Source: a virus. From it: DNA of 64,000 bases. This document shows, piece by piece, positions 645-46,650 of the stretch. A model generated the notes under the pieces. It had not been told where the DNA came from, did no database searches, and was given only the letters and a program-made list of their open reading frames with translations. Within the stretch, counting starts at the first letter, position 1; every line of letters begins with the position of its first letter. Made by a program: the position numbers and the translations under genes. Where the stretch lies: the IMG/VR virus record IMGVR_UViG_3300043436_001870, positions 49,165-113,164 of that record. One strand, 5' to 3'.

Positions 645-3600
645 TTATCTCCAATTTTGTGCTTTTACAAAGTTAGTTACTGCCATTGCAGGATCCAAAG
701 ATTTACCTGTTGCTCCAAATGATCTAGCTAAATATGTTAAGGGTTTATACCCTTCAATCGGATTATCAGTGCCTCCTTCCTGCATCCATACATATGGTCC
801 TTCACGTTGATCAAAGTAGGCCTTTGAATCATCAGTACCAAAAAGACTATGCATAGCACTTGTAGTTAAGCCTCCTATGATTTTCCCATAGTTGTCAAAT
901 GTATTGTGCATTGCAACTGAGTCAAACTTTAACATCTCTAGATAGTTACCACCAGTTAACCATTGTTGTTGTTCATTTTTTAAACCCATAGCCATCATCA
1001 ATGCATGGTTAGATAACCAACCCATAAACTTAAAATCTGTTTCAGTTTCTGATGTGCCTATGAATGGTAATGGTCCAGACTTCTTACGGAGTTTTTCAAA
1101 CTTATCTGGATCATCATAATCAAATCCAAATATCATTGATATTGATAATACAAGTAATGCTAAGCTTCCTACATCAACTAGTGATTTAATCACAGCAATT
1201 TTTTCAGAATCTGTTCTAGATCTATAGTAGTCACTACCTTGTCTGATACTTCTTACAAGAAGTCTTAATGACTCAACGTGGTAACCCATTACTGTATCTC
1301 CTACTGCTGCATCAAATCTATATTGAGGATCTCTCCATGAACCTCTAAACTGGAATCGATTTAAGAACATTCTTACAAACCATCTCTTGAATGCAATGAT
1401 CCATTTGAATAGTAAGTATCTATCAGCATCAGCATAGTCAAACTTAGCAAATGAACCGGCCAGGTTATTTGTTACACCCTGTACCTTATTCTTAAATGCT
1501 TTGAATTTTTCTCCACCAACTCCCCATTCAGGATCTACTCCTTCTTTAATTCTTATCTGACCATCTACAGTTTCCCATGCATCCATGTAGGGAATTCTTT
1601 CTGTTCTACCATTTACAGTTCTTTCTACGGTTTGATGATACATCATGGCACCAAAGATTGAAACTGTTGAGTTTAATTCTGTCCATTTTCTAAAGCTAGT
1701 CATCCAACTCAAACCACCAAGGGCATCCTGTGCAAAGGATCTTGACATCTGCTCACCAAACTTTTCCTCAAATCTTCCCTGATATGCATCAAAGACCATG
1801 ATCAATTGTTCATTATGAGTCTTTGGTTTACCTGTATATAAGTTCATGCTGAGATCCATTGCTGCATTTGTTGCCCACAATTGACCTTTACCATAGTTAG
1901 CAGTATTAAAGTATCTACCTCCTGCTGCTTCAATCATAGATTGAATTCTTAATGAGAAGTCATTCTTTAATGCTGATGGAATGTCTAATGCAAAATAACC
2001 AAAAGCAGAATACTTCATGATCTGCTGTGCTGTTTTTGTTACCCATCTTGCATCATTATCATTACCAAGAGCACCCTTTGCCATCACACCTTCAAATTCT
2101 CTTTCAATAAAGTTGTCTATAGCTCTTTGTCTTACTGATTTATCCTTCTGTTCCTGTTGCCAAAGAGCCTTCTGTTTAATATTATTAGCAATGTTTCTTG
2201 CTTTTATTTGGCTATTAGATATACCTTTCTGAATGTTTACATAGTTAGATGGATCATGTAGTACAGACTGTAAAGCTCGGGCCATTGGATTCATCTCAAT
2301 CAGAGCTCTTTGTTTTTCAGCTGACAACATATATCTAAGCATACCTCCTACAACATCCAATGATACATCACTTACACCTAAGTCGGACAAACCATGAATA
2401 GGAATACCTGCATACTGATCATCATATAAATCTCCATCCATAATCATTGATTGCTCTTCATAATTGAAGCCACGATCAAAGTCATCTGATGAACCTTTAA
2501 ATAAATTTCTGACATTCCTCCACCATCCAGATATAGGATTTTCTGGTTTCTTATCTGCATTTAGGAAGTTCAGATTTCTTTCATAGTTACTAGTCATGAA
2601 TCTTGGAATGTCCAAGAATAATTTAGATTGACTAGGACTTCCCTCTTGAAATCTTAAATGATATTTAGAGAGAGCAAGAATAGCATCATAAAGAGGCTTA
2701 TCATTCTTCTTAATATCAAAGAACTGTTGATTGATGAATCTATTATCAGGAGCATCAAGACGTGGTAAGTGTCTACCATAATTATCTACAGTAGCCAATG
2801 TAGGATCACCTTGTTCTAATGCCTCAAGCATTGTTACTTCCTTTACAATATACTCATCCTTTACAATACGTTTGGTATACTGCTGTGAAGGAACACCAAG
2901 AACTGTTTCAGTTTCACCCTTAGAATTAGTAAATGTAAATGTCTCATAGTGTTTAGCATTGCTAGGTCTTGTGACATTCCATGCTCTTACTCTTGAGATC
3001 TTTGTTGTAGGTGCCCCTGTTTTATCTCGGGTCTGCTTCATTGTATGGTTTTCATCAAACCATGCCTTTACTTCAGGATATTTTGAGATAACTGTGTTAT
3101 AGAATGTTGGATCAAGAATTTTATCTGCATTATCTGGAGTAATATCCTTAGAACCAATTGTATCTATAAGAGTTTTAATAGGAATAAGACTAAATATTGA
3201 ATTGGCTGTATCAAGATAATAAACTGTAGGAACAGACTGTCTCAATTCTGAGAGCTCGTTGTATAGTTCCATGATTCTTTGCTTGTCTGCCTTTGACAAA
3301 CCATACAAGGATCTCTTATCCATAAGACTACTAAATCTTGAAGACTCAAATTGATCTAGTCCTCTTGTAGATTTGATTTCAAATAAATCATTTAATTCCT
3401 GCTGCTCTAATTTAGTGAGACCGGTGATACCTATAAGAGCATCCTTAGCCTTTTCAATCTTCTCCTCAACAGCTTTAATTGCAGCAATGTTGTTTACACT
3501 CATTGCTGTACCATCTGGCTGCATATCCTCATCTCTATAAGGATTAAGGAGCTGTCTCATTTCTTCATACAACTCATCAATCTTAATAGTAGCAGCAACA

Positions 3601-6365
3601 GTTGCAGGGAGTTTAGCTTTGATAGCATTGATCTCATCCACTATTCTCTGCTGTTCTTGGTAGTAACTTTCCTTCAGTTGAATTCTTGTATTCTTTGCTA
3701 TCCACTGAAGTCTGAGTTTATCCTTTACTTGTTGAGGATAGTTCTTTCTGCTAAGCTCATCCTCATATCTTGTAAGGGCATCTGTAAACAAGGTAGGCAT
3801 GACCTCTGATGTATAGAAGTCCTTTGAGGCTTCTCTAAACTCTCTCAGTCTCTGTGCTATTGCAATTTCCTCAGGGCTCTTTAGTTGACCGGCTGCATTA
3901 AAATTTGAATGCATTAGTCTATACTCCTTCCATAATACATCAAGACCTTCAGTTACGGCCTTGTTTTCTTCCTCACTGTTTCTATCTACAGTAGTACTAA
4001 GGTTTTGAATTCTAGCAAGCAAATCTTTTCTTCTTGCCTCAGCTATAGGACCAACTGTATCATTATCATCCTTCTTAAATATTTTATATCTTTCATAATA
4101 CTCTTTTACAAAAGGAGTATGAAAGTATGTTCTCATGAAAATATCCTTCTCTAACTTGAGACGGATTGCTTCTGAGTCATCACCTGTTTGCTGAGCTTTT
4201 AATACGGCATCTTCAATGTCTTTGTCCATCTTAGCTGTTGCAGCTCTATAATCCTTGTAAGGATTGATGATGGTTCTCACTTCTTTGTCACTTGTAGTGC
4301 CACTTGCATCTCTTGCTGGTCTGCGATCAACAAATGTAATCTTTGCACCAAATGCTGCTGGATTGCTTTGATTGTATCCTGCTCTATCAAGTATTGGTTT
4401 TACATCACTAATAAAAGCATTACCTCTACTCTGTGCAGTAGTCATGACATCAGTTACTCTGTTCTTTACCCACATTGCAAATCCAAATACAATTGGATCC
4501 TGGTTATAAATGTAACCTTCCAAGAATGAATTTAAAGCACTGGCATCACCAATGTTACCCTGCATCAAATAATCAATTTTCTCTTCAGAGAGATATGCTC
4601 CTTTCTTAAAGGAGATTCTCTTAAGCTTCTCATAGTTCTCAGCAGCTACACCAGTAAGCTTTTCTCCTTTTTCAATTCTTTCTTTAAATGACAAGAATGC
4701 TTTTAGCTGATCTGGTTCAAGACCCCAGTAATCTTTCATACGGAGAAGTCTAGTTTGTTCAGATAAACCAAGTTTGTCTATATCTTGCATCAACTTCTTG
4801 TACTTATCATCAATGTACTGCTGCATTGGTTTCAACTGAGTTTTAATTAACTCACTTGTACCATTGAAATATACCTTTCTTGTAGAGATCTTAGCTGTAT
4901 CTATCTGACCCTTGATATTCTCTACCAATTCAAAAATAGGATTCTCTGCCTCAATGTATCCATCTTGTTGAGCCTGTGCAAGAGTTTCCTTGAAATTATC
5001 AATGAAATTTTCCCATCCATTAAGAACATCATTGAAGTAGAATACAGTAGCAATATTATCCTTAGAATTTGGATCCTTTACAAGCCCAGTAATAGCACGG
5101 TTCATTTTAGTAGCCATACTTAATAGTCTGTCCAAACTCTGAACAAATGCTGTAGTGTGACTTTGTGCAGTACGTATCTCCTGCATTATTTTGTCAATCT
5201 CCTGGGTTATAAAAGTAGTTGCATCCTGAAATGGTGTAAGGTTTCTTTTAATTTCCTCAAGGTCATTTCTATTATACTTATCTTTGATAATCTCAGCAGC
5301 AGCTGCATAGTCCTTGTTCTTTTGAATAAGACCTAAGTACTTATTCATTACAACATACATCTCATTAGTAGACTCAATGAGTGCATTCTTTGGTAAGTTA
5401 TCTAACCCCTGTATTACTTCTTGTAGGTCAGTATAGTATTTGACTACATCTTCTTCAGACACAGCATCTAGATCAAGAATAAACTTGTCTAGAACAAGCA
5501 TGTCTGCTAGTTGATCTAATGTGGTGTCTACACTTAACTTCTCAATGGTAATCTTTTCCTCCTTGCCAAAAATCTTTCTTAAGATTTGGCGGATTGCATA
5601 TAGAATATCAGAGATGAACTTATTAAAGGCACTGTCTTTCTTCTCTACTGCAGCTTCAGTAAGAGCCATTACTAATAGCTCTTCCATAATAACAGGATCG
5701 TCCTCTGCTAATTCAGGGTAAGCTTGTTTAGCTGCCTCAAGAAGTTTTGGACCCATTGATGTCTGAAGTACCTGGCTAACCAGTTTATCAAACAATGGTT
5801 TATTAGATAACTGAATTGCTCTAATTACAGGGTGAGCAAACTCGTGGAATGCAGTCTTCTCTGTAATCAAATTAGGAATTACATATACTCTCCCCTGAAA
5901 GAAGAATGCTGGCTGACCTTTCCATGGATTGGCAGAACCTGCTGTAATTTCTGCAGCTGTCTCTGCTGTAATAACATCATAAGGAATACTTGTACTCTGA
6001 CTTAAAGCAAAAAGAAACTGAGTCATTCTTGCTGTTACCTTAAGACTACCCTGTGACTTTGCATCAAGAGTAATAGGATTAACAATTGTACTGTATGCTG
6101 GATCTGTATTTATTGATGTTTGAAATCCATTATACATAGCACCAAGTGGTACATTCTTTAATCCCGGAGCATGAATTGCTAATGTCTCAAGCATGTCATT
6201 AAACTGCTCAATTGTAGGAATCTCTATATCCTCACCAGCTTGTTTGTTCTGGTTAATTGTAAGATATGCACGTTTTACTTCCTGCTCTGCTATTTCAGCA
6301 AGACCAATTGATTTAGCATATTCAATAAGGGGATCAAGCACCCCAGGCATAGGACAAGCTACCAT
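645..6365 (-). CDS. Large virion cargo/ejection protein (1906 aa) with N-terminal zincin-like domain
   Basis: HEFAH at 5832-5846 followed by MEELL. Mostly helical, with a hydrophobic stretch (VGSLALLVLSISMIFGF) near the C-terminus. Adjacent to the virion RNAP gene. Confidence 0.8.
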   Translation of the reverse strand: MVACPMPGVLDPLIEYAKSIGLAEIAEQEVKRAYLTINQNKQAGEDIEIPTIEQFNDMLETLAIHAPGLKNVPLGAMYNGFQTSINTDPAYSTIVNPITLDAKSQGSLKVTARMTQFLFALSQSTSIPYDVITAETAAEITAGSANPWKGQPAFFFQGRVYVIPNLITEKTAFHEFAHPVIRAIQLSNKPLFDKLVSQVLQTSMGPKLLEAAKQAYPELAEDDPVIMEELLVMALTEAAVEKKDSAFNKFISDILYAIRQILRKIFGKEEKITIEKLSVDTTLDQLADMLVLDKFILDLDAVSEEDVVKYYTDLQEVIQGLDNLPKNALIESTNEMYVVMNKYLGLIQKNKDYAAAAEIIKDKYNRNDLEEIKRNLTPFQDATTFITQEIDKIMQEIRTAQSHTTAFVQSLDRLLSMATKMNRAITGLVKDPNSKDNIATVFYFNDVLNGWENFIDNFKETLAQAQQDGYIEAENPIFELVENIKGQIDTAKISTRKVYFNGTSELIKTQLKPMQQYIDDKYKKLMQDIDKLGLSEQTRLLRMKDYWGLEPDQLKAFLSFKERIEKGEKLTGVAAENYEKLKRISFKKGAYLSEEKIDYLMQGNIGDASALNSFLEGYIYNQDPIVFGFAMWVKNRVTDVMTTAQSRGNAFISDVKPILDRAGYNQSNPAAFGAKITFVDRRPARDASGTTSDKEVRTIINPYKDYRAATAKMDKDIEDAVLKAQQTGDDSEAIRLKLEKDIFMRTYFHTPFVKEYYERYKIFKKDDNDTVGPIAEARRKDLLARIQNLSTTVDRNSEEENKAVTEGLDVLWKEYRLMHSNFNAAGQLKSPEEIAIAQRLREFREASKDFYTSEVMPTLFTDALTRYEDELSRKNYPQQVKDKLRLQWIAKNTRIQLKESYYQEQQRIVDEINAIKAKLPATVAATIKIDELYEEMRQLLNPYRDEDMQPDGTAMSVNNIAAIKAVEEKIEKAKDALIGITGLTKLEQQELNDLFEIKSTRGLDQFESSRFSSLMDKRSLYGLSKADKQRIMELYNELSELRQSVPTVYYLDTANSIFSLIPIKTLIDTIGSKDITPDNADKILDPTFYNTVISKYPEVKAWFDENHTMKQTRDKTGAPTTKISRVRAWNVTRPSNAKHYETFTFTNSKGETETVLGVPSQQYTKRIVKDEYIVKEVTMLEALEQGDPTLATVDNYGRHLPRLDAPDNRFINQQFFDIKKNDKPLYDAILALSKYHLRFQEGSPSQSKLFLDIPRFMTSNYERNLNFLNADKKPENPISGWWRNVRNLFKGSSDDFDRGFNYEEQSMIMDGDLYDDQYAGIPIHGLSDLGVSDVSLDVVGGMLRYMLSAEKQRALIEMNPMARALQSVLHDPSNYVNIQKGISNSQIKARNIANNIKQKALWQQEQKDKSVRQRAIDNFIEREFEGVMAKGALGNDNDARWVTKTAQQIMKYSAFGYFALDIPSALKNDFSLRIQSMIEAAGGRYFNTANYGKGQLWATNAAMDLSMNLYTGKPKTHNEQLIMVFDAYQGRFEEKFGEQMSRSFAQDALGGLSWMTSFRKWTELNSTVSIFGAMMYHQTVERTVNGRTERIPYMDAWETVDGQIRIKEGVDPEWGVGGEKFKAFKNKVQGVTNNLAGSFAKFDYADADRYLLFKWIIAFKRWFVRMFLNRFQFRGSWRDPQYRFDAAVGDTVMGYHVESLRLLVRSIRQGSDYYRSRTDSEKIAVIKSLVDVGSLALLVLSISMIFGFDYDDPDKFEKLRKKSGPLPFIGTSETETDFKFMGWLSNHALMMAMGLKNEQQQWLTGGNYLEMLKFDSVAMHNTFDNYGKIIGGLTTSAMHSLFGTDDSKAYFDQREGPYVWMQEGGTDNPIEGYKPLTYLARSFGATGKSLDPAMAVTNFVKAQNWR

Positions 6366-9300
6366 TTACTTAAAGCATTTATTATTAAACTCAGCAATTT
6401 CTTCATCTGTTACAGGAGCACCATATTGTACAACAATACGTCCTTCACCAAAAGTCAAGTAGTGAGGATTGATATATCCAAACTTCTCAAATAATTGTTG
6501 TGAAAGATACAAAAAGGTTTGGACACCTATGGTTGTTTTATCAGCATACTGTGCATCAGCAGCTGCCGGGAAGTATTCATTGTAACCAATGAGGTACTGA
6601 CCATATCCATTAGAATCAAATGCAAGGTTGACACCAGATTCTTTCTTCTCCATAAGAGCAGCAATGTCTTCATCAATCATTGCTTTGTTCTCTTTAAGAG
6701 TAGCATCTGTCCATGCAGCCTTAGCATTGAAGTCCTTGATCTTACCTTCCTTAGCTTGAGAGACACGTGGTAATGATTTAGTTCTTATACCCAAAGAATT
6801 GTCACCCATAGCTCTGTAAACAACATTAGTACCAGCTGTATCTCTACTTTGTGTTGATGCTTCATTCCTCACAAATATTGTATTAGGATAGTCAACACTT
6901 AGCTGTATAGCATTCTGATCTGTTAGTTTATCAAACTGATTAACTACCTTTTTGGTTTTTTCATCTGTGCTTGTAAGGAGGTTGAATGTAAGTACACCTG
7001 TAGATGTATCCTGCAGCAATTCAAACAAAGTTAAAGTCTGAATATCACCAACTCTTTTCTTATTTGTAGACTTACTGATTTTACCAGCAACTACTTTTTT
7101 AGAACCAAAGTCACCGTTCCATTCAATGTTTTGACCCCCCGATTGACCATTTCTATTTAGAGCATAAGCAATGTTTGTCGCTCTAGATAAAGCTACATAC
7201 TTTAATTGGTTTTTTTCTTCTAGGGAAACAGGTGCCTCAATAATTGACTCTGTATCTACAAACACATTTGTATATGTTGATCCTTGTGACTTATGAATAG
7301 TATGAGCATAGCCATAGTCTATTGACTTTTTAAGAACTACTCTACCTTTTTTATCCGTAACGTCAAATGGAGTCATTATAGAATCTTTCAATCCACTGTA
7401 TATTGCAAATGCTTGATTTGCTCTTAGCTCTCCTGATTCAACCTGAGCATCTAAAGATTTTTGATATTCAACCAGTTTCTGAGCAAGAAGATTAATAATT
7501 TCTTGAGAGGTGCTTCTACTTAATACAAACTTCTCATATATATCACCATCACCATCTATTTCTTGTAGTTGTATTGTATATCCAGTTAGTTCAAGACCTC
7601 CTAGACCATTAAATGTCATTTTATTTTCTGCTTGAACGGATAGTACTTCATAATCAACAGAGTTATTTATTTGAAATGTTCCACCTTTTTTATAGCCTAC
7701 ATTTTCATATGCCATAATAATGTCACCTATAACATATTCTAGAATCTTAGACGTATCTACTTCTTTATCAAACCAGATTTTGTTTCTTACAACCTGGTTA
7801 AAATCCTCTACCCTTTCATTAGAATGTGACAATATTCTTACAAAGTTTCTATTGTTCTTAAAGTTTTCAGACTTAAAAGCAGCAATAGCTTGTCTTGTGA
7901 AATCAACTCCAGTCTTTGTTGTAACAATGCCTTGATTACCAGAAAGTTCTGTTTTAGCATCTATAGCTGATGTATCCTTTTTCTGATTATTACGAATGTC
8001 TTCAAGTATAGGACCTAATGGATTTGATCCAGCTTGTCTTTCTACTTTAGTCAGTTCATACTTATAGGGATGATCAAATGCTTTAGATCTCTTAGAGGTA
8101 GTCTTATCTTCCTCTACAGGATTAAGCTGTGCAGGATCTCCAATGAATAAGATCTTTGTTTTACCTTCTCCAGCATAATCAGACAGAGCATCAAATAACT
8201 CATCACCTACAAGTGAAGCCTCATCTACAATTACTACATCAGGTTTATAAAGAGATTCTTTTTGTACAGTTAACTTAATTTTACGAAGGTCTGTCTTAGT
8301 AAGCTTAGATGAGCTACCAAGACCTAGAAGCTTCTGTAATGTCACAGCTCCTGTCTTTGCTAGTTTGGCAATTACCTTCTTAGCTTTATGAGTAGGTGCT
8401 GTTACATTAATAGAGAGACCTCTTTGTCTCATGTACTCAAGGGCAATCTTTGTGATACTTGATTTACCTGTACCAGCATAACCCATCAGAGTAAATACAT
8501 CCTGGTTAGGATTATCAATGAAGTCAGCAATCTGCTGCAATGCTTCAAGCTGTTGATCATTAGGTGTAAATGGTATATCAAGCTTATCAAGATTTAGATT
8601 AATACCATTTATTGTAACAATACGACCAGGAGTCTCTTCCTCTGTTTCAAGTGGTGTTTCTAATTCAGATACAGTGTCATCTGTAATTCTAACAATATCT
8701 GAAGGTATTCCCTCAGGATTAAATGCGTAGTTCTTAAGCTTGTTACTTACATTCTTATTGTCAATTCTATACTGATTATTAAACAATGATGTATACTCAT
8801 CAAGAACAGTATTAGGTCTAGCCTTTAGATCAGTAAGAAACTTATCATAGGATGACTTAAGAAGACCATAGAACATATCATTAGGAACAGCTCTGATTAA
8901 GCTGAACGCAGATGTAGTATCAATACCTGTCTGAAGTAATGCATATAAACCAAATCTTGCAAATACCTTTGAGATTCTTTCATTCTCAATTGGATCTTCT
9001 ACCTTAATTACATTAGGGTCAGCTAGTTCTTCAATCTGCTGAGTATATAGATCAAGTTCTTCAGGTGTAGGTCTGTCACCAGTAAACTTAAGGTTGTTAA
9101 TAGTAACCTCTTGTTTCTTACCATCATTGGTTACAAATGATGATCCTCCTGTACTAATCTCAAGTCTATCAAGAACCTCATACTTGTCTAAAAGTGATGG
9201 GTTCTCCTTACCAATTTCAAGTACTTGCTTAGCATAAGATCTACCACCAAAGAACATGTGTCCATGGTAGTTGAGATTATCCAAAGCCATATCTCTTAGA

Positions 9301-12300
9301 GTAGCCTCATAAGCTTTAAATGCTGGCTTTGAATCATTCTTGAATGTATTTAGATGCGTCTTATAGATAGATGAGTTCTTTAAGTTTTCTGGACTATTCT
9401 TCTCAAAAGATCTTAGGACTTCTCTTTCATATACAAACTTAGTATAGAGAGCCTCAGCTGTCTTAGCATCATACAATGCAAATACAGATGACTCCACAGG
9501 TGCTACCTCGTTCTCCCACATAGAATCTTTAGAATACAATTCCTGTTGGAAAGTTGTAAGGATATCAGACTTACTTGCATACAAGATACCATTTTTTACT
9601 CTTGCTCCGGCACGAAGATATGTGACACCTTCAATAGGAACTTGTACTTCAAATCCTCTGTATACACCTTGTGTCTGATTGAATCTATAGTAATTAGATT
9701 GGAATACATAGTTAATCAAATCACTTCTGAATCTTTCAATGTACTCATCAGCATCAAGACCAGTCATCTTCTTATATGCAGATATAGGAGGCATACCCGA
9801 GATATCCTTATCAGTAAGGGATGCTATTTTTCTATTTACCTCCTTGCTATCTCTTAATGGGAATAGGTCACTGAATAAATCAAGGATGAAGTCTTGAATC
9901 TTGTAGGCAGACACCGGTGAATTTTCAATGATGTTCTGAATAGACTCGGGCTCAATACCATTAGCAAGGTCATCAATCTTAGCTAGTCTTAATCTAGCAT
10001 CAAGAAGTGTCTCTGTCTTAGTACGGTCAAAGTTCAAGTTCTGAGTAAGCTGAGTAATCTGTGAAGACATCTCACTTATTTCAAGGAAGTGAAGGAATAC
10101 AGAACGGTCATAATTATCAAAATCATTTGACTTATTAAGACGGCCTGCTAGGTCTGCTTTCTTAAACTCACCTATACCTTCTACAAGTCTATCAATTTCT
10201 TCAAAAACAAGTCTCTTACTAGGCTTCTTGTTCTTATACTTGGAGGTAGAATCCTTATCAGACTTCTCTTGGAAATCTGCTACAAGCCAGTTAAAGCCAT
10301 ACTTATTATCACCCTTATCAGCAAATAGTATACGGTCTCTTGCCTCATTTCTAAAGAAGTTACCTACATCACCATAGCCAATAGCTCTAGAGTACTGACT
10401 CTTAAACTTACGTTGCTCCTTAACAAAGTCACGTATGATTGGTTGAGACAAGAAGTATACGGCATCCTCAACAGGTACACCTGCCATGGTCATAAAGAGA
10501 AGACTGTTAATCAGCTCCTTGTTACCCTGAACATCAAAGATCCATGCTTTCTTAGCCACGTCAACAGAACCGTTGATCAATTGGCTGATAATGTCTGAGA
10601 TCTTGTTTAACTGTTCGGCATCATAATTTGCTGATAATGTTATACTATCACCTATCTTGTTGTGTGCAAACTTCAGTCTTTGTGGGTGCTCTACCGAACC
10701 TCTTTGAGTCTGAGTAATAATACGATTCTTTGTAAGAACCAAACCTGATCTACCAAAGATTGATTGAAATGTATTTACAACTGCAATGATACCTAGTACA
10801 TCCTTCCCTACGTTGTTTGACTGATGCTTATATAGGTTTCTTCCTACCTCAAATATTTCAGAAAGTCCTTTAGCCTTCTGTGTGCCTGCTCCTTTAGTTT
10901 CTTTAGCAATAGTCTCACCCAACGGTTCCATAGTGTCCGTTGTATTAGGTGTAATAAGACTGCTGAAGTTAAATGGATCAAGAAGAATATCCTTGATTAC
11001 ACCTAGAAGTTGGTTTTCAAGACCGGCCTTATCATCACCAAAGTTCATTACTGCAGAGGTCTTGTCTTCATAGTAAGTATCAATAGCTCTAAGTATATCT
11101 TTCTCCTCTTCTGTAAGAGTAGAGATGTCTAGATCTTCACCTAGTTGAACTAATTCTTTTATTTCATTGACTATAGCAGCATCAATTCCAAAACCAAGAA
11201 TATCAGATATTAAAGCATAGTCTTCCTCATTAACCTCTCTCTTTGTTTTGATGGTTGGGAAGAAGGTAAACATCTTATCAATGTCAAAGTCACCACCAGA
11301 CTTAGCAACAATCTCTGCAGGAAGAATAACAATGTTACCTGACTCCTCTGGAAGGAATTCAAACACCTCCATGACCTCCATAGAGTTTAGACCTTGAACT
11401 GGGATACGTACAGCAGCAGTTGTTACCATTGCTCTGTTGTCCCCTTGGTTCAACCACCACTCCTGCTTTATAAGATGATTTAATGCATCCAGTCTAGTTA
11501 CTCCATTCTCATTAGAGTATTTTACTACATCAGCATGATTTAGTAAGTTCTTAAATGGACCTTGTAAGGATATCTTGATCTTCATTGCTGATACAGATAT
11601 CACATTACCTTTCTTATCTAATTTAGGATTATAGAATGGTAGACCATTTGTACCACCATATCTTCCTATTTCTTCTTCTGTAGCTGTTCTTAATCTACCT
11701 TGTTCAAATCCTACTCCAGATACTTGTACTAATGATTCACCAGTTAATTTCTGATTAAGTATTCTCTTCTGAGCAATGTTTACAAGAGCTCTTTCAATTA
11801 CATCTGCTGATGGAGATAAGTCTAGATCTCTTAACAGAGTATCTGTAGCTTCATCTACACCTAAGAAGTCTACCTCATGCTCAGACAGTTTCTTACCTGG
11901 GCCAGACAATTCACTCTTAATGAATTCAATCAGACTTTTCTTAGTAGAACCTACCTGATCTCTGATTTTCTGTTTCTCAATCTCTACAAGACTGTCTAGA
12001 ATCTTTTCAAATCTAGATGCATATCTAGCAAACTTTGTAGAAAGCTTATCATTCTCAGCATTCCAGAGTCTGTATCTTTCATTCTTGTCTGCTATATTTG
12101 GTTTGTAATCTACAGGAACCTTATTTTCAAATAGACCCTGCTCAATTAATTTACGTAGCTGAGAAGAGAATGTAACTTTCTTTTTGTAATACTCAGCTAC
12201 TTCTAACTGATCCTTGAAGTAATCAAGGAAAACAGTATTCTTTGTAAACTGATAAGTTGGTGCATCAAATGCATAACCCTCAGTTGTTCTTTGATTATCA

Positions 12301-15300
12301 TTGTAGAACTTATCTGCCTTACCATCTTTAGTAATAGTGCTAACCTTAGACCCTGACTGCATCAATGCATAGTCAATATCCTGGTCAACCATTTTGTTAT
12401 GAAGGTTTTCTAATGGAGTATTCTTGATAACACTTGGAATCAACGGCATCAATGAGTATTTGTGGAATGCTGTTGCAGGTAATCCTGTACCCATAAGTGG
12501 GCCCCAATACTGCATCTTTTTAACTGGGAAGAAGTTTAGCACATCATCCATGGCTACTTCTTCACCCTTCACAATCTTGTTATATAGAAACTCCTGATTA
12601 GGTGTCCATTTATTCAATGACATCAATAATGCTCTATAAGCATCAAAGCTGATCCAACCCTGACCATCTGCTTCAGTCATCTCAGTATACTTAGAGAATA
12701 CTTTTTTAATAGATGCCTCGGCTTTAGCAACAGTTTCTGGACTTGCATTTACTTTCTTTAGACGGTCCTTCTCAATCTTGAGAGCTGCTTCTAAATACGT
12801 ATCATAGTAAATTGATTTACTTACAACATCCTGCATTACTGCAGAGTTCATAGTATTACCAAATGATGCTCTTGTCTTACCTCTTGTAGCAGCATAACTG
12901 ACCTGAGCAAACTTGCTGTCAATATATGCCGTCATTGCTGGACCTGTTCTAGCAAAGTCACCGGTTGCTGCAATACCAGCATTACGTTTAAAGAAGTCAT
13001 CTACATTCTTGTAGAGAGCTGGGTCACCATAGAACATTACACTAAACTCATACTTATGGATCCAGTCATTAGCTGTATATCCATCAATAAGAGCCGTAAT
13101 CATTTTTTCTCTTCGTTCAGCAGTAAGTCCGTTGATAACATCCTTAGGTGATCTTTCTGAATCACCTGTCTCAAGCTTTTCCAAAAGACTGTTTATCACA
13201 CCAGTATTACTCAGGATGCCACTTTCCTGAAGCATTTTAGCATTCTTCTGTCTTTGCTCAGTAAGATAATCTGTAATGTCTGTTTGTAATAAATTCTTGA
13301 GATCAAGATTACCATCAACAAACTTTAGAAACTGTTCTGATGTTTGCACCTCAGGACTTGTAGCTAACTGTTCCTTAAGGTTAGTAATTGTCTCGGGCTT
13401 AAGTATACCATTAAATATTACAAAGTCTTGAGCAACTTCACCATAGGTTTTATCACCAACAGTTACTGTTGCCGATGGATCTCCATTCTTAAGTTTTTGT
13501 ATACGTTCAAACTCTGAAGACAGGTACCCAATTAGTGTATCTGCAAATTCAGTTTTACCACCAGCAGTCTTAAAGTTTTTTAGATCAATGTAATGTAACT
13601 TACCATTAAGTAACTTGTACAATAATGTAGTAGCCTTGTCTGCATGTCGGGTTGCCTCAGTAGCACCGTACAGAGTAAGCATCAAGAAATCTCCTACAAG
13701 CTTTGTTGTTTCATCAGCAGAGGATGCATCAATACCACTACGTTCCATTATGTTACGTGTGTTGGTATATTGATTCATGAACCCAGCCATGTTATTAAGC
13801 TGAATAGAAACAGGAACTTGCTGACCACTACTAGAATCTTTATAAGTTCTTCTTACACCATTTTCATCAAAGGTTGATTTATATATGATGGTTGATTTTA
13901 CAAATGGATTTCTAGAAGGACTAAGATGACTCATGCTTAAATCATTGGCATTAGGCACACCTTCCTGAGTAAGCTCTGTAATAGATTTAGCTCTATTCCA
14001 TTTACCAATCTGATTAGATATAGTACTTCTTAATGATCTTTCTTGCTGGCTTTGATTGTTTGCATTGTTTACTGTAGTATCTGCAAAATCATCAGACCAT
14101 TTTAATTGGAACTTCTGTAATCCGTTGTATATACCAGAACCACCACCAAGAACTTGTCTTACAGAAACTTGTTCAATCTTTTTAGGAAGCTTATATGCTG
14201 AATCTGATTTATAGTTCTTATATATATCTGATGGTGCCTGAATTTTTATAGGATTTAATAGACCATCCTTTGATTTGTTATAGGCATAAATTGCCTGTAG
14301 GTAGTCCATGGTACGTTTACCATAGTTAGCAAGGCCTGACTTATAAGCATCAGCCTTAGCTGATTTACCATCTTCTAATACAATACCTATGCTATCAAAA
14401 AACTTATAGATATCATCTATATTGTCTTTTGTAAATTTAGTATTTCGGAATTGTCTATAAACAGCATTAACATTTAGAATATTATTACCATAGATGTCTT
14501 TAGTAATATATTCTCCTTCATCTGCAATAGCAAAGTTATCATTCCATCTTCTTCCTACTTTTCTGAACTCACCAGTTGCCTCAACAGGACTTACAATATA
14601 GGATGTTTCTTTACGTCCAAATCCTCCTTGAACATCCTGAATAAATCTATCAGTCTGCTTAAGTTCAAGCATTCTCAGATTAATTCTAGGCATTGTCAGA
14701 ATCTTTGTAAAGTCAGTCCAAAGATTCACTGATGCTTCATCTAAGTTCTGTGGAGAACCTATCTTGCTCATTAATTCCTTAATAATAGGATAGTCTTCAG
14801 CAGCAAGCTTTAACTTCTCATAAACTTCATTATCTGTATTAGCTCCTTCTGTAATATTCAGAATACGATTCCAGCTTTTCTTAAAATCATTTAAGTCCGG
14901 AAGACCTAGTATGTTCAGTTTAACTGAGCCATCTTTCTCATAGGCTTTTAGGGATCTGATTGTGAATAGTACATCTGGTTTAGCCAGGTTAGCTAATGGA
15001 ACTTCATTACCAGCTCTTTTTTCAAATACATTTCTATCCGTGATAGATGCCTCCTCCTCAATAGCCTGTATAGTACTCTTCATAAGAGTACTATTTTCCA
15101 TATGGAATTTTACAAGACCTACGGGATTATCTAAGTTATATGGATCACCAAAGTTTGCAAGTCCTGCAGCAATGGTATCAATGGCAAAATCAGTATCAGA
15201 TGTATCTTCAATATTAGAATCCATCTTGGATCTCTCTTCTAAAAGATACTCAAGCTGAGCTGTCATCTGTTCTCTTACATAATCATAACCAACAGAAAGT

Positions 15301-18008
15301 GACTGCTTATCTTTAATAAGAGTGGTTGTTGCTGCTGCTGTGTTGTATGCTTCATTTACCTTGTCAACATACTCAGAGAAAAGAGCATCGGTGCTATCTC
15401 CTAAAAGCTTGCTGATCATACTATTCATTACATAAGGAGAATCAGCAGCAGTTGACTCAATTGTCTTAGTCTTATTTAGTACATCAAAGTTAGCATTGGC
15501 TTGATCAAAAGTATAACCAGTTAGATTACCTACACGTAGTTTTTCATACAGCTCTCCAATGACTTTGTTGTCCCTAGGTGAAAGCTGTACTTCATCAACA
15601 GTTGTTCCTCCAAACAAGTTCTTAAGTAAATCAAGTAACCATTGGAAGAACTTATTACGTACAGGCTTGCCTTCTACAGGCTTACCTTTACCCAACATAA
15701 ATTCACGGAAATCCTCTGCAAGATACTCCTCTAGCTCTAGTAGAGTAGCATCAGCAAATGATACTGTTCTACCCATATATGACATGAATGTGCCGGTGCT
15801 CTTACGTGCCTCAGCATACATCTCATTTCTTTGGGCCTCAGTCATGAATGTCTGAGTAAACCCATGCCATGCTTCATGGTATAAATCAGTAAAGTCAGAA
15901 CCTTGGAAGAGAGTAATACCAGATAATGTCCAAGTTGCAACAGAACCTCTTGTATTAGAGTTTACTGCATTGAACATTACTTCATAAGGAATAACCTTAG
16001 CTAAAGGACTTCTCTCATACCATGCTTTAGCAGCATAGATCTGAGCAACAGTTGCTTTAACTGATTGTTGCTTATCAAGTTTGTTGAGACCTTTGGCCTT
16101 ACGGATAGTCTCTTCAAGCTTACCATTCTTTATGGCATTACCAATTACATTAGAATCAGCAGAACTTCTACCTCTTGGTTGTCTAGCCTTTGCCTTTGTA
16201 ACTGCTTCTTGTGCTGCAGCTTCATTGACTGGATTAGAAACAACTGGTGCAGTGCTTACAGGAGCTTGTGGTTGTTGTACTGTTACTGGATTCTTTAATA
16301 CTGTTTTACCAACCTCAGCTTTTACTGGACTGATTGTAAAGTATCCATTGTACTCACGTAGTTTACCATTAGAGTCAAAGAATCCTCTGATCTCTTTTGA
16401 AACTCTATCTAAATATTCTATTTGGTTCTCAGTAAAGTAATCTAAAACAATGGTACCATCCTGCTCAGACAAATTGAAGTTTGTGAAACTATTTTCATTA
16501 AAGTTCTTAGTAAGTATACTGTATTCTCTTGGAAATTTTTTTTTATCTGAAGAAATAGCATTTCTTAATTCTTGAAAAGAAAGAGCATCTGTTAATTTTT
16601 GAACAGCAGAGGAATCATTTAAGTCTATGTCTTTTCCATTATGAGTAATGTATAACTCAGACAACTTATAGTCAAAGTCTATCTTAAGACCTTTTCTTTC
16701 TTGTCCACCAAAGAATGAATTAATTAACTCATACTTTTCTTTTAGGGAAACTTTTACTCTTTTACCTTCAACATTTTTATATACGTCAGTGGTAAGAAGT
16801 TTAACAAGTTTATCTATATCAGTTTTGTCAGCAGGTTTTGTAAACACTTGTACTGACATATTACTTGCTCCAACCTTAAGTTGAATTGATTGTTTCTTAT
16901 CTTTTGTAACAAAATCTAATTTTAAAGGAACATTACCAAAATTGGCCTGTGAAACTTTGATACTAACTCCTTTTGCATCAGTATAAATACCAAGACGTGC
17001 ATCTGTAATAGAATAAACAATTGTATTACCTGGATTCTGATTCAAATATGCATAGCTTTTACTCAATGCATCAAATTGTGCAGTAAGTAATGCTTCAGCC
17101 TGCTCAATAGATATCTCACCTTCAGAATTATCTGATATTTCTTTTGGTGACTGTGTATACTCATTCTTTTGCCAGTTGTACTTACCATTGTCAAGTTTTC
17201 CTGGAATAGGTCTTGAACCATAATAAATTATACGTCCTTTATCTGATACATTAAACTGTTCATTAAAGTATAAAGGTGTACCATTGACATCTGTAATTAC
17301 AAATGCATACGGATTTTTATTTGCAGGCTGAGGGTATATCTGACCTTCAGGGATTCTCTTAATAGGTACAAGACTAATATGAATACCGCCAGTTACTCCA
17401 GGATACTCTATACCAGTTTCTCCTGGTTTAGGAGTAAGACCTTTTGCAGCCAAGAACTTAATAAAGTCTGTGTAATAAGCTAATGCTGCATCCTCTCCTA
17501 GACTGGCATTGCCTGGATCAGACAATGTATTAATTGTTGTAGCAAACGGATTAATAGGTCTAGGTCTTGTAAAGGGTACTCCTGCCTTGCTAATCTGAGC
17601 ACTTACTAAAGTTCTTTGTTCCTCAAAATTGATTTCAGAAATGATTTCTCCAAGATCTTTAGGAGGCTCATTGAGTCCTAGATAAGCTACTGTATTGTCA
17701 AGTCCTTTTTCTGGATTTGATAATTCATCTCTCAAGTCAAAAACCTCATCAAGACTTAATCCTTTTTTACGAATTTCCTTGCTTTTTGGTTGAGCAATCA
17801 TCTCTGGAAGAACAGCAGCTGTTAACATAGCATACTCAACAGCCAAGTTTTTATTTCCTGATTTAGCTAACACTCTGTCATAAATACTTTTTAGGTAGTT
17901 ATTCAGATTAAAAGTTTTTGCAGGATCATTAATAATCACTAATAAATCCTTTGCAATTTTTTTACGAAGGACCTGTATCTGCTCTGGGGTTCTTGTACAA
18001 TTGATCAT
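6366..18008 (-). CDS. Virion-packaged two-barrel RNA polymerase polyprotein (3880 aa): zincin-like domain, RNAP, SF1 helicase, C-terminal domain
   Basis: HEAWH (15864-15878) and LEEYLAEDF; ADGQGW (about 12655-12672); RIPVQG (about 11400); KSGGDFDIDK with DFDID at 11277-11291, as in the phi14:2 gp66-type crAss virion RNAP. Helicase motifs GYAGTGKS, DEAS, GDPAQL, HKSQGSTY, YVALSRA at about 7150-8570. Confidence 0.9.
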   Translation of the reverse strand: MINCTRTPEQIQVLRKKIAKDLLVIINDPAKTFNLNNYLKSIYDRVLAKSGNKNLAVEYAMLTAAVLPEMIAQPKSKEIRKKGLSLDEVFDLRDELSNPEKGLDNTVAYLGLNEPPKDLGEIISEINFEEQRTLVSAQISKAGVPFTRPRPINPFATTINTLSDPGNASLGEDAALAYYTDFIKFLAAKGLTPKPGETGIEYPGVTGGIHISLVPIKRIPEGQIYPQPANKNPYAFVITDVNGTPLYFNEQFNVSDKGRIIYYGSRPIPGKLDNGKYNWQKNEYTQSPKEISDNSEGEISIEQAEALLTAQFDALSKSYAYLNQNPGNTIVYSITDARLGIYTDAKGVSIKVSQANFGNVPLKLDFVTKDKKQSIQLKVGASNMSVQVFTKPADKTDIDKLVKLLTTDVYKNVEGKRVKVSLKEKYELINSFFGGQERKGLKIDFDYKLSELYITHNGKDIDLNDSSAVQKLTDALSFQELRNAISSDKKKFPREYSILTKNFNENSFTNFNLSEQDGTIVLDYFTENQIEYLDRVSKEIRGFFDSNGKLREYNGYFTISPVKAEVGKTVLKNPVTVQQPQAPVSTAPVVSNPVNEAAAQEAVTKAKARQPRGRSSADSNVIGNAIKNGKLEETIRKAKGLNKLDKQQSVKATVAQIYAAKAWYERSPLAKVIPYEVMFNAVNSNTRGSVATWTLSGITLFQGSDFTDLYHEAWHGFTQTFMTEAQRNEMYAEARKSTGTFMSYMGRTVSFADATLLELEEYLAEDFREFMLGKGKPVEGKPVRNKFFQWLLDLLKNLFGGTTVDEVQLSPRDNKVIGELYEKLRVGNLTGYTFDQANANFDVLNKTKTIESTAADSPYVMNSMISKLLGDSTDALFSEYVDKVNEAYNTAAATTTLIKDKQSLSVGYDYVREQMTAQLEYLLEERSKMDSNIEDTSDTDFAIDTIAAGLANFGDPYNLDNPVGLVKFHMENSTLMKSTIQAIEEEASITDRNVFEKRAGNEVPLANLAKPDVLFTIRSLKAYEKDGSVKLNILGLPDLNDFKKSWNRILNITEGANTDNEVYEKLKLAAEDYPIIKELMSKIGSPQNLDEASVNLWTDFTKILTMPRINLRMLELKQTDRFIQDVQGGFGRKETSYIVSPVEATGEFRKVGRRWNDNFAIADEGEYITKDIYGNNILNVNAVYRQFRNTKFTKDNIDDIYKFFDSIGIVLEDGKSAKADAYKSGLANYGKRTMDYLQAIYAYNKSKDGLLNPIKIQAPSDIYKNYKSDSAYKLPKKIEQVSVRQVLGGGSGIYNGLQKFQLKWSDDFADTTVNNANNQSQQERSLRSTISNQIGKWNRAKSITELTQEGVPNANDLSMSHLSPSRNPFVKSTIIYKSTFDENGVRRTYKDSSSGQQVPVSIQLNNMAGFMNQYTNTRNIMERSGIDASSADETTKLVGDFLMLTLYGATEATRHADKATTLLYKLLNGKLHYIDLKNFKTAGGKTEFADTLIGYLSSEFERIQKLKNGDPSATVTVGDKTYGEVAQDFVIFNGILKPETITNLKEQLATSPEVQTSEQFLKFVDGNLDLKNLLQTDITDYLTEQRQKNAKMLQESGILSNTGVINSLLEKLETGDSERSPKDVINGLTAERREKMITALIDGYTANDWIHKYEFSVMFYGDPALYKNVDDFFKRNAGIAATGDFARTGPAMTAYIDSKFAQVSYAATRGKTRASFGNTMNSAVMQDVVSKSIYYDTYLEAALKIEKDRLKKVNASPETVAKAEASIKKVFSKYTEMTEADGQGWISFDAYRALLMSLNKWTPNQEFLYNKIVKGEEVAMDDVLNFFPVKKMQYWGPLMGTGLPATAFHKYSLMPLIPSVIKNTPLENLHNKMVDQDIDYALMQSGSKVSTITKDGKADKFYNDNQRTTEGYAFDAPTYQFTKNTVFLDYFKDQLEVAEYYKKKVTFSSQLRKLIEQGLFENKVPVDYKPNIADKNERYRLWNAENDKLSTKFARYASRFEKILDSLVEIEKQKIRDQVGSTKKSLIEFIKSELSGPGKKLSEHEVDFLGVDEATDTLLRDLDLSPSADVIERALVNIAQKRILNQKLTGESLVQVSGVGFEQGRLRTATEEEIGRYGGTNGLPFYNPKLDKKGNVISVSAMKIKISLQGPFKNLLNHADVVKYSNENGVTRLDALNHLIKQEWWLNQGDNRAMVTTAAVRIPVQGLNSMEVMEVFEFLPEESGNIVILPAEIVAKSGGDFDIDKMFTFFPTIKTKREVNEEDYALISDILGFGIDAAIVNEIKELVQLGEDLDISTLTEEEKDILRAIDTYYEDKTSAVMNFGDDKAGLENQLLGVIKDILLDPFNFSSLITPNTTDTMEPLGETIAKETKGAGTQKAKGLSEIFEVGRNLYKHQSNNVGKDVLGIIAVVNTFQSIFGRSGLVLTKNRIITQTQRGSVEHPQRLKFAHNKIGDSITLSANYDAEQLNKISDIISQLINGSVDVAKKAWIFDVQGNKELINSLLFMTMAGVPVEDAVYFLSQPIIRDFVKEQRKFKSQYSRAIGYGDVGNFFRNEARDRILFADKGDNKYGFNWLVADFQEKSDKDSTSKYKNKKPSKRLVFEEIDRLVEGIGEFKKADLAGRLNKSNDFDNYDRSVFLHFLEISEMSSQITQLTQNLNFDRTKTETLLDARLRLAKIDDLANGIEPESIQNIIENSPVSAYKIQDFILDLFSDLFPLRDSKEVNRKIASLTDKDISGMPPISAYKKMTGLDADEYIERFRSDLINYVFQSNYYRFNQTQGVYRGFEVQVPIEGVTYLRAGARVKNGILYASKSDILTTFQQELYSKDSMWENEVAPVESSVFALYDAKTAEALYTKFVYEREVLRSFEKNSPENLKNSSIYKTHLNTFKNDSKPAFKAYEATLRDMALDNLNYHGHMFFGGRSYAKQVLEIGKENPSLLDKYEVLDRLEISTGGSSFVTNDGKKQEVTINNLKFTGDRPTPEELDLYTQQIEELADPNVIKVEDPIENERISKVFARFGLYALLQTGIDTTSAFSLIRAVPNDMFYGLLKSSYDKFLTDLKARPNTVLDEYTSLFNNQYRIDNKNVSNKLKNYAFNPEGIPSDIVRITDDTVSELETPLETEEETPGRIVTINGINLNLDKLDIPFTPNDQQLEALQQIADFIDNPNQDVFTLMGYAGTGKSSITKIALEYMRQRGLSINVTAPTHKAKKVIAKLAKTGAVTLQKLLGLGSSSKLTKTDLRKIKLTVQKESLYKPDVVIVDEASLVGDELFDALSDYAGEGKTKILFIGDPAQLNPVEEDKTTSKRSKAFDHPYKYELTKVERQAGSNPLGPILEDIRNNQKKDTSAIDAKTELSGNQGIVTTKTGVDFTRQAIAAFKSENFKNNRNFVRILSHSNERVEDFNQVVRNKIWFDKEVDTSKILEYVIGDIIMAYENVGYKKGGTFQINNSVDYEVLSVQAENKMTFNGLGGLELTGYTIQLQEIDGDGDIYEKFVLSRSTSQEIINLLAQKLVEYQKSLDAQVESGELRANQAFAIYSGLKDSIMTPFDVTDKKGRVVLKKSIDYGYAHTIHKSQGSTYTNVFVDTESIIEAPVSLEEKNQLKYVALSRATNIAYALNRNGQSGGQNIEWNGDFGSKKVVAGKISKSTNKKRVGDIQTLTLFELLQDTSTGVLTFNLLTSTDEKTKKVVNQFDKLTDQNAIQLSVDYPNTIFVRNEASTQSRDTAGTNVVYRAMGDNSLGIRTKSLPRVSQAKEGKIKDFNAKAAWTDATLKENKAMIDEDIAALMEKKESGVNLAFDSNGYGQYLIGYNEYFPAAADAQYADKTTIGVQTFLYLSQQLFEKFGYINPHYLTFGEGRIVVQYGAPVTDEEIAEFNNKCFK

Positions 18009-45271: not shown

Positions 45272-45933
45272 CGTGTTGCACTTTGTTTATCAGAAAGGAA
45301 TTGATCTTGTGGTATCTGTATGCTAATCATAAAGTCCTGAAGAACTTGTTTTTCAATCTCAGCAAAGAACTCAGGTGGTATACCAAGAGCTTGCTCTTGT
45401 ACAGATTTGCATGGATCATCACAACTAAAACCTGCAACACTTGAATCAAAGATTGCCTCAATTGAGATAGCATCCCATTCAGTATCAGGTAAATACAAGT
45501 AACTATCCATAAACCAGTAGTACTTATTATTATTATACTTAAATGCAGATGTCTTTGTCATGCTGGTATATAAAGCCGGAGTTGTCTTATACACCTCAGT
45601 GTATGTATCAATTGACATTACTGATCTTATAAGGGGTCCCTGAGGTCCTTCAAATATACCAGGTAGTTTGTCTTTGGTCCTTTTGATTACACACCCAGAC
45701 TTTGGTTGACAGCATGCCTCAACTCTATCAACCTCTACAAGATCAACACAGGCTAATCTTTTATACAGAGATCCAAACTTAGCACGGCCAGCAATAGGAT
45801 TCTGTCTTTTCATATACATCCGGGCATACTTAGTTATCAGGCTATAGATCATACGATCTGTTACAAATGAATCCACATTTGCAGCCTTGATAACATTTCT
45901 CACCCTTGATATTGCATCACCAATTGTATCCAT
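45268..45933 (-). CDS. Tail ring (tubular) protein
   Basis: 221 aa; CVDLVEVD..CC...CVIKRTK.KLP and YYWF..SYLY...ISIEAIF motifs as in crAss-like ring proteins. Confidence 0.75.
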   Translation of the reverse strand: MDTIGDAISRVRNVIKAANVDSFVTDRMIYSLITKYARMYMKRQNPIAGRAKFGSLYKRLACVDLVEVDRVEACCQPKSGCVIKRTKDKLPGIFEGPQGPLIRSVMSIDTYTEVYKTTPALYTSMTKTSAFKYNNNKYYWFMDSYLYLPDTEWDAISIEAIFDSSVAGFSCDDPCKSVQEQALGIPPEFFAEIEKQVLQDFMISIQIPQDQFLSDKQSATR

Positions 45934-45935
45934 GT

Positions 45936-46520
45936 TTAATCTATTTCAAAGTCATTATATTTTGCTTTGTCTATGGTATTTCTAATCTTAAAGTAATCCC
46001 TAGACTTATTCTTCTTATACATCTTAACAACATCTGTAGTATTCTCTACAACAATGTATTTCTTAAAATCCTCTTTGTACCTATCTTTTACAGTTCTCTT
46101 GAACTCTCTTGATGCTGTAAAGGCCCAAATAGATCTTTCTCTTAATTTGTACTTTGCATAGTACGCACTAAAAAATATCTTACCAACATATCCATCCGTA
46201 TCCCAGTTCTTATGTTTTACAACAACTCCATACTTAATGGACTTGCCGTAGTCAATATTATCACTGGTCACATTCCCACAAGACCCTATAAAAACAAATC
46301 CAAGACCCTGTGGTAGCTCTATACCATCTCTATGCTCAATTACTTTATCCCATAGCAGTCCATTGAATTTATGGACTATCTTCTTAAGCTCTCTCTTTCC
46401 ATAGTGGCTATACTCTGGAAACTTTAATCTAAACTGCTCTAAATAGTCCTCATCAATTATATTGGTTTTCTTGACTCTGTATCTTGGAGCATTAAGATCT
46501 GGCTTTCTGAATTGCTGCAT
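45936..46520 (-). CDS. IHF/HU-like DNA-binding protein (crAss-type)
   Basis: Basic 194-aa protein with IVHKFNGLLWDKVIE.RDGIELP.GLGFVFIG and FTASREFKR, typical of the divergent IHF gene in crAss-like structural modules. Confidence 0.7.
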   Translation of the reverse strand: MQQFRKPDLNAPRYRVKKTNIIDEDYLEQFRLKFPEYSHYGKRELKKIVHKFNGLLWDKVIEHRDGIELPQGLGFVFIGSCGNVTSDNIDYGKSIKYGVVVKHKNWDTDGYVGKIFFSAYYAKYKLRERSIWAFTASREFKRTVKDRYKEDFKKYIVVENTTDVVKMYKKNKSRDYFKIRNTIDKAKYNDFEID

Positions 46521-46648: not shown

Positions 46649-46650
46649 TA

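Follow-up and report, generated by a model that had tools for sequence, protein, structure and literature searches.

How an RNA polymerase of the crAss type, delivered with the virion, begins transcription on an incoming duplex genome calls for an explanation, since the purified polymerase gp66 of phage phi14:2, which is packaged into the virion, transcribes single-stranded or denatured DNA strongly and duplex DNA poorly (Drobysheva et al.). The question is raised in a particular form by a locus within a 64,000-nucleotide stretch of viral DNA, in the following called the window, which constitutes the right-hand 64 kb of the 113,164-bp IMG/VR virus record IMGVR_UViG_3300043436_001870 (CheckV completeness 95%). 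A giant open reading frame (ORF) of this window, P0001, encodes a virion RNA polymerase polyprotein that unites in one chain an HExxH motif, a gp66-like RNA polymerase with the motif DFDID, a helicase of superfamily 1B (SF1B) and a DUF7831-like C-terminus (Table 1). Inserted in frame behind the polymerase body and ahead of a conserved C-terminal domain, the helicase is an optional aid and does not belong to the core of the polymerase. What such a helper might contribute to the delivery or the expression of the phage genome is considered below.

By every testable feature of sequence and modelled structure, the inserted domain is a bona fide SF1B member with intact catalytic residues and a predicted 5'-to-3' activity. 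The PHROG family phrog_325 (Dda-like helicase) matches residues 3145-3615 (E 6e-79), the Pfam families AAA_30 (E 1.5e-25), AAA_19, PIF1 and UvrD_C_2 all score above their cut-offs, and a sequence search of the PDB returned T4 Dda (3UPU, E 5e-17), a deep-sea Dda-like helicase and RecD2 as matches of the helicase. All motifs that a preliminary description of this DNA had listed, from the Q-motif to YVALSRA, were recovered in the same ORF as DFDID, with Walker A at exactly the position given there, and the span 7150-8570 which had been assigned to the helicase falls inside a domain on which domain search and structure prediction agree. Across 49 homologues, 20 alignment columns are invariant (Q, GxGK, DE, D..Q, R, H..Q and Y....R), and each of them is intact here. 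An AlphaFold (AF2) model of residues 3131-3880, built on the 49-sequence alignment, has a mean predicted local distance difference test score (pLDDT) of 82.8. The best Foldseek match of the modelled helicase is T4 Dda 3UPU (E 2.8e-28; template modelling (TM) score 0.80 normalised to Dda), aligned over 486 columns to the 439-residue enzyme, with RecD2 and Pif1 following. Two RecA-like domains and the Dda-type accessory domains are found in the model, that is the 1B pin, with its hairpin at a pLDDT of 55-63, and the 2B SH3-like tower. The domain thus shares all motifs with the SF1B 5'-to-3' helicases T4 Dda and RecD2 (3GPL), and its predicted fold covers the whole of Dda; T4 Dda, however, is a free 439-residue early protein of replication and recombination, whereas its counterpart here, at an identity of ~22%, is a domain of a 3,880-residue late virion protein.

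Equally, the polymerase of P0001 belongs, as judged from its sequence, among the gp66-like virion polymerases. The top PDB sequence match is 6VR4, the structure of phi14:2 gp66 (phmmer E 5e-22), with residues 1634-1895 and 2198-2538 aligned and with the catalytic loop reading SGGDFDIDKM here and TGSDFDIDKM there. A tblastn search led to Crassvirales genes annotated as 'putative RNA polymerase' and to phi14:2 g066, and megablast of the gene against reference phages revealed no near relative. Common to gp66 and P0001 are the homologous polymerase core with DFDxD, the encoding by a giant late gene of the cargo block and an HExxH module N-terminal to the polymerase (the gp65 neighbour in phi14:2). 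The two differ in length, 2,194 residues in 6VR4 versus 3,880 residues here, and in the helicase cassette and the DUF7831-like domain that are added here.

The join between polymerase and helicase is encountered far beyond this one record. A word-indexed search limited to proteins of 2,134-6,790 residues yielded 147 giant proteins with this helicase domain, encoded on contigs whose size is typical of crAss phages, and DFDxD is present in about 100 of the 120 giant helicase proteins retrieved, usually 900-1,500 residues upstream of Walker A. Ten IMG/VR contigs from different metagenomes keep the same frame open from DFDxD onwards, across the helicase and up to the same C-terminus (40-90% identity), while an eleventh, the shorter L016, holds the helicase and the C-terminus only. 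P0001 is colinear with full-length relatives that are 86%, 69% and ~42% identical to it, and the helicase alone, 84, 70, 44 and 43% identical in four relatives, has diverged as fast as the remainder of the protein. Assemblies from Logan, ENA and JGI show the same architecture, as do two reference genomes of human-gut Crassvirales, cr118_1 (Suoliviridae, Besingivirus), with a 4,946-residue coding sequence (open frame 4,949 residues) labelled 'DNA helicase' or 'exonuclease V', and cr50_1 (Suoliviridae, Cohcovirus), with a 4,774-residue coding sequence (open frame 4,775 residues) labelled 'DNA helicase'. In each of these two genomes the one-ORF fusion is the only SF1B copy; the helicase identity to P0001 is ~30%, and cr118_1 is located on another branch of the helicase tree, on which cr50_1 was not placed. 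A chimeric assembly or a mis-called ORF that joins two genes, to which the linear metagenomic contig of the source record might have pointed, therefore has a negligible chance of being the explanation, because the ORF is uninterrupted and the same colinear junction is repeated in many independent assemblies and in both reference genomes, and the concern about a chimera that accompanied the preliminary description is effectively settled. In one relative, L023 (IMGVR_UViG_3300043568_000218; = L054), positions 10001-12218, the helicase is frameshifted after ~321 domain residues and the +1 frame runs 432 codons further, the frameshift being either a sequencing error or a sign of a decaying cassette.

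The boundaries of the insert become apparent from relatives that lack it. A search with the polymerase core (residues 1600-2540) gave 447 giant homologues, 138 of which were analysed by domain-wise phmmer. In 78 of the 138, core, body and C-terminal domain are present without a helicase and the C-terminal domain directly adjoins the body; a helicase is found in 44, with a detectable C-terminal domain in 23 and without one in 21, and the other 16 are not judgeable. Alignment to three helicase-less relatives (P0251, P0256 and P0259) leaves a gap from residue 3098 or 3102 to residue 3662, which takes in the helicase together with an acidic linker before it and a short linker after it. The helicase had previously been regarded as built into the polymerase; across the relatives the domain is recurrent, being carried by 44 of the 138, and it is absent from 78.

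The history of the cassette can be approached from both partners. On a FastTree phylogeny of 119 polymerase cores, which was built without an outgroup and on which the direction of change is read from nesting, the presence of the helicase changes at least nine times, seven of these changes being forced by well-supported branches. The polymerase clade of P0001 (34 members, support 100) contains 23 proteins with and 11 without the helicase, and ten of these 11 form one group nested among helicase-bearing branches. In a tree of 187 helicase domains, P0001 falls into a fully supported clade of 13 members, 12 of them polymerase-fused and one a 905-residue protein of ambiguous status. Because of this helicase clade and the nested helicase-less group, the cassette appears to have been inherited vertically in this lineage and to have been lost thereafter, with the direction again deduced from nesting. 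Throughout the helicase tree, free (~450-500 residues) and fused forms interleave, with at least 13 changes forced, and crAssphage gp14, encoded in the replication block, is part of a supported clade that also holds fused forms. Similarly, among the 520 matches below 1e-30 of an exhaustive HMMER search in 1.84 billion representatives, giant and 450-500-residue proteins alternate in rank, some of the 'free' or 'mid-size' helicases possibly being fragments of longer genes.

In comparison with the 89%-identical L016, the ratio of non-synonymous to synonymous substitution rates (dN/dS) is 0.23 for the helicase, 0.17 for the polymerase body and 0.15 for the C-terminal domain, values which indicate that the helicase is under purifying selection and is kept functional where it is present. 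Taken together with the intact invariant residues, this agrees with the earlier view of a complete helicase that is not catalytically dead. In the same comparison (window 7101-8618 versus L016:2027-4252) the synonymous rate dS of the helicase, 0.215, is well below that of the polymerase body (0.54) and of the C-terminal domain (0.51), which could reflect a recent exchange of the cassette between the two lineages or an unusual codon constraint.

A census of copy number, conducted with phrog_325 over whole records, separates the genomes into three groups. A fused copy only is found in six, namely the genome of P0001, cr118_1, cr50_1 and three relatives from IMG/VR, of which two are 100% complete; a free copy only is found in three (crAssphage, cr110_1 and crAssE-Sib); and 13 show no significant match, namely phi14:2, cr108_1, cr85_1, cr1_1, cr4_1 and cr10_1, the last with just a 15.6-bit P-loop match, and seven relatives whose polymerase ends in the same C-terminal domain without having the cassette, G006 among these showing just a 19.8-bit P-loop match. 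No genome of the census combines a fused and a free copy. Compensation of the missing cassette by a free copy was considered for the helicase-less relatives and rejected, as none was found; the loss of the cassette is uncompensated, and the helicase is therefore not essential to this type of polymerase. Weak phrog_325 matches of ~20 bits in ~220-residue ORFs of relatives (G008:C1:72584-72787; G006:C1:63979-64239, the latter with 19.8 bits and in-frame stops) probably represent unrelated small P-loop proteins.

In the reference genomes the fusion stands, without comment, as an annotation label; in the literature no account was found of a crAss-type virion polymerase joined to a helicase of the Dda type, although Fig. 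3 of Yutin 2021, on domains of the transcription block, may show it. New here are the precise site of insertion, the loss without compensation in sister genomes that are complete, and the census in which both copies never coincide.

Table 1. Features of the giant ORF P0001, with positions in the window and residues of the encoded protein.
Feature	Positions	Strand	Residues	Basis or remark
Giant ORF P0001, virion RNA polymerase polyprotein	6366..18008	minus		uninterrupted, 3,880 codons
HEAWH (HExxH) motif	15864..15878	minus	711-715	possible zincin-like gp65-equivalent module
gp66-like RNA polymerase core	10395..13109	minus	1634-2538	aligned to PDB 6VR4 residues 867-1681
DFDID catalytic metal-binding motif	11277..11291	minus	2240-2244	motif and 6VR4 alignment
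Polymerase C-terminal body	8718..10388	minus	2541-3097	conserved in relatives with and without helicase
Helicase cassette (~565 residues): acidic linker, helicase, short linker	7023..8717	minus	~3098-3662	segment missing in helicase-less relatives
SF1B (Dda/RecD2-like) helicase domain	7101..8618	minus	3131-3636	Pfam, PHROG, PDB, AlphaFold/Foldseek
Q-motif PNDQQLEAL	8538..8564	minus	3149	Q invariant in 49-sequence alignment
Walker A / motif I GYAGTGKS	8460..8483	minus	3176-3183	motif and alignment
Motif Ia APTHKA	8382..8399	minus	3204	motif and alignment
Walker B / motif II IVDEAS	8214..8231	minus	3260	motif and alignment
Motif III GDPAQLNPV	8115..8141	minus	3290	motif and alignment
Motif IV LTKVERQ	8034..8054	minus	3319	Arg invariant
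Motif V YAHTIHKSQGSTY	7272..7310	minus	3567	motif and alignment
Motif VI YVALSRA	7179..7199	minus	3604	Arg invariant
Conserved C-terminal domain (~220 residues), DUF7831-like	6369..7022	minus	~3663-3880	closes polymerase lineage with or without helicase

The domain that closes the protein is characterized by the motifs DYPN, GTN..R..G, FD..GYGQY.IGY and TFLYLS.QL..FGY.NPHY. Its match to Pfam DUF7831 (PF25176), with 22.1 bits and an E-value of 1.4e-4, lies under the gathering cut-off of 27 bits and designates it as DUF7831-like, not as a confirmed member; in six of eight members of the clade DUF7831 matches at E<=0.01 (best 2.7e-5), and precomputed PF25176 hits exist for several relatives. With its moderate-confidence model, Foldseek found nothing in the PDB at E<=0.001, the best VIA-align Z of 4.1 was within noise, and the ESM Atlas gave no usable hit.

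At the other end of the protein, the HExxH motif precedes DFDxD by ~1,450-1,650 residues across many relatives. Polyproteins with an HExxH module N-terminal to the polymerase have been mentioned for this type of polymerase, as has the possibility that such fused polyproteins are cleaved (Drobysheva et al.). From motif and position, and from the phi14:2 literature, the module is a possible zincin-like equivalent of gp65; the region has no match to a Pfam family at E<=1 and no tblastn match among 50,697 phage records. Among close relatives (P0002-P0020) the distance from the N-terminus to HExxH varies from 711 to ~1,500 residues (window ~15880-18008, residues 1-710 here), with a steady spacing of ~930-950 residues between DFDxD and Walker A. 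NADAR/YbiA and 2OG-Fe(II) oxygenase domains are inserted in relatives, and a second cassette hot spot lies upstream of the HExxH module.

P0001 is situated within a long run of late genes on the minus strand, at the end of which stand the genes for structural virion proteins and for the major capsid protein. Its 5' start overlaps the 3' end of a 1,702-residue ORF upstream, and it adjoins a 1,906-residue ORF downstream; the three giant ORFs around the polymerase are translationally coupled. For six neighbouring giant ORFs (1,906, 1,702, 1,083, 927, 844 and 2,473 residues; window 645-6365 and 18008-39180), no PHROG family was found at E<=0.001. Among reference phages, the major capsid protein (window 61482-63101) is closest to that of Leptolyngbya phage Lbo-JY46 (28.5% over 99%), a cyanophage in culture, with the epsilon-group crAssE-Sib and Cellulophaga phi17:2 coming next; because these matches are unclassified Caudoviricetes or lie outside the order Crassvirales of the international committee for virus taxonomy (ICTV), the phage is named just 'distant crAss-like'. 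A homologue of the polymerase core was not detected in Lbo-JY46, phi17:2 or crAssE-Sib; a free SF1 helicase occurs in crAssE-Sib alone, Lbo-JY46 and phi17:2 having no phrog_325 helicase at all. Two further helicases, one DnaB-like and one of SF2 (phrog_16), are encoded in the early and middle region of the genome, along with a primase, a Sak4-like annealing protein, an AAA ATPase, a DNA polymerase, a ParB-like protein, an exonuclease and a metallophosphoesterase. Located outside the window (G000:C1:22297-23418, 33328-34317 and 45533-47539), the replication module includes the phrog_16 SF2 helicase, a short DnaB-like protein of 329 residues, the Sak4-like protein, the primase and a 668-residue DNA polymerase (phrog_1252). 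A role of the SF1B domain as the main replicative helicase was rejected, since the genome possesses its own DnaB-like and SF2 helicases.

Which task, then, might the helicase fulfil? In crAss001, the proteins associated with the polymerase are carried as cargo in the capsid, leave it before the DNA does and refold inside the cell; together with the phi14:2 literature this agrees with the premises of the preliminary description, virion delivery of crAss-like polymerases and a single-strand preference of gp66. By analogy with the proteomics of both phages, and in line with its position among late cargo and structural genes, P0001 would be packed into the capsid and ejected ahead of the DNA, as are other crassvirus polymerase proteins. 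Tentatively preferred, with somewhat less than an even chance of being correct, is the reading that the helicase is an accessory booster of early transcription which acts in cis and is not required. The incoming genome would thus be met, ahead of all phage gene expression, by a ready-made, ATP-driven 5'-to-3' single-strand translocase which, tethered to the polymerase by the acidic linker, would run 5'-to-3' on the non-template strand. The polymerase would read the template 3'-to-5' and hence travel in the same direction as the SF1B motor on the non-template strand, so that the tethered pair could keep the strands apart, clear host proteins from the DNA and increase early transcription. The repeated and retained fusion to one partner, with DFDxD in about 100 of 120 giant helicase proteins, suggests a benefit in cis. 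A functional precedent for the pairing of this polymerase type with a helicase is offered by Neurospora, where QDE-1, the structural counterpart of gp66 in eukaryotes, depends on the helicase QDE-3 and on the single-strand binding protein RPA for its single-stranded DNA template; QDE-3 differs in that it acts in trans and in a different biological process. QDE-3 is, moreover, of the RecQ type and not SF1B.

Several points weigh against a booster of early transcription. The cassette is dispensable, given the 78 of 138 relatives without it and the at least nine changes on the polymerase tree, and no SF1B helicase was found in seven relatives that have the same C-terminal domain and no cassette, one of which is a 100% complete genome of 122.6 kb. 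Phage phi14:2, in which the single-strand preference was measured, equally is without any SF1B helicase. Free helicases of the same family reside in replication blocks, and the ancestral role may have been replication or recombination; the NADAR, 2OG-Fe(II) oxygenase, ART and RNase H cassettes of relatives fit an anti-host toolkit equally well; and cleavage of the polyprotein, should it occur, may remove the tether on which an action in cis would depend. To load onto DNA, SF1B helicases of the Dda type require a single-stranded 5' site, a requirement that speaks against the unaided opening of intact duplex promoters. That P0001 is packaged, hydrolyses ATP and is coupled to transcription is in each case extrapolated. 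As a built-in or general mechanism the helicase is not supported, since most polymerase relatives are devoid of it and relatives without it have no SF1B helicase elsewhere, phi14:2 included; that it opens DNA for the polymerase is plausible, but not as a general solution.

In a rather unlikely alternative, the helicase would be an injected effector of counter-defence or host takeover, an interchangeable payload that acts independently of transcription and, for example, frees the entering DNA of restriction complexes, nucleoid proteins or CRISPR effectors, or remodels the DNA of the host. The giant protein of relatives indeed holds NADAR/YbiA, 2OG-Fe(II) oxygenase, ART-PolyVal, RNase H and other domains, the distance between HExxH and the N-terminus differs by hundreds of residues among relatives, as expected of cassette hot spots, and the patchy presence of the helicase is as expected of arms-race cargo. 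Polyvalent virion proteins with helicase modules have been described in other phages (Iyer et al. 2017, PMC5512222), and P0001 resembles them as a giant multi-domain protein with swappable enzymatic cassettes, a zincin-type module and a virion polymerase, which here would be delivered with the virion. Several unrelated domains are found in one chain, and relatives swap NADAR, 2OG-Fe(II), ART and RNase H domains and gain or lose the helicase. On the other hand, the helicases of the described polyvalent proteins are mostly SWI2/SNF2 proteins paired with methylases, with a few UvrD-like ones, and not of the Dda type; the polymerases described there, which are joined to MPTase and ART domains, are virion polymerases of the N4 type, that is single-subunit enzymes unrelated to the two-barrel crAss-type polymerase, and a fusion to a Dda-type helicase is not contained in that work (PMC5512222). 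Against a freely exchanged payload also stands the stable vertical inheritance in the clade of P0001 at the rate of the polymerase, and a defence target is indicated by none of the data here.

Unlikely, too, is a stronger form of the preferred reading, in which helicase and polymerase would constitute a covalently coupled bipolar machine, a self-unwinding RNA polymerase that transcribes duplex DNA without host factors and perhaps draws in the genome. The observations that weigh on the booster of early transcription, among them the dispensable cassette and the loading site of Dda-type enzymes, would bear on this form as well.

Doubtful is a role as an accessory helicase of replication or recombination in the manner of T4 Dda, which would be freed by proteolysis and serve in origin firing, in the progression of forks past obstacles or in recombination, being delivered early for a quick start of replication. 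By structure as well as by sequence the helicase matches T4 Dda and RecD2 best, and free relatives are found in the replication block of crAssphage, cr110_1 and crAssE-Sib and are interleaved with fused forms on the helicase tree; crAssphage gp14 and the cr110_1 'SF1 helicase' belong to the same family at 28-30% identity and differ by being free-standing proteins of ~480-490 residues among replication genes. Fused and free copies never occur together (six fused, three free, 13 without significant match), and a cleavage of such polyproteins, as this role would presuppose, has been proposed in the literature. However, the genome already has DnaB-like and SF2 helicases, a late-expressed enzyme packed into the capsid in few copies would be an odd supply route for a replication factor, and the recurrent fusion specifically to the polymerase would be left unexplained.

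Very improbable is a function as a motor of DNA entry, the second suggestion of the preliminary description, with the helicase on the leading genome end helping to pull the DNA from the capsid into the cell. Such a motor would profit from a delivery before or with the DNA, as would follow from crAss001, and transcription-coupled genome entry is known in other podoviruses; SF1B enzymes, however, move on single-stranded DNA, whereas the entering DNA is duplex, and relatives with the same virion genes are entirely without the helicase.

If the helicase does support the polymerase in cis, a self-unwinding polymerase would answer, for these lineages, how a polymerase that prefers single-stranded DNA gets its template; being optional, the helicase cannot be the general mechanism. 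The fused lineage and the sister lineages in which the motor is cleanly deleted provide, as sequences, natural test material and its matching control. Labels such as 'DNA helicase' or 'exonuclease V' for the whole gene hide the cassette architecture, and the giant cargo polyproteins of crAss-like phages can be seen as scaffolds with fixed joints at which enzymatic cassettes enter and leave.

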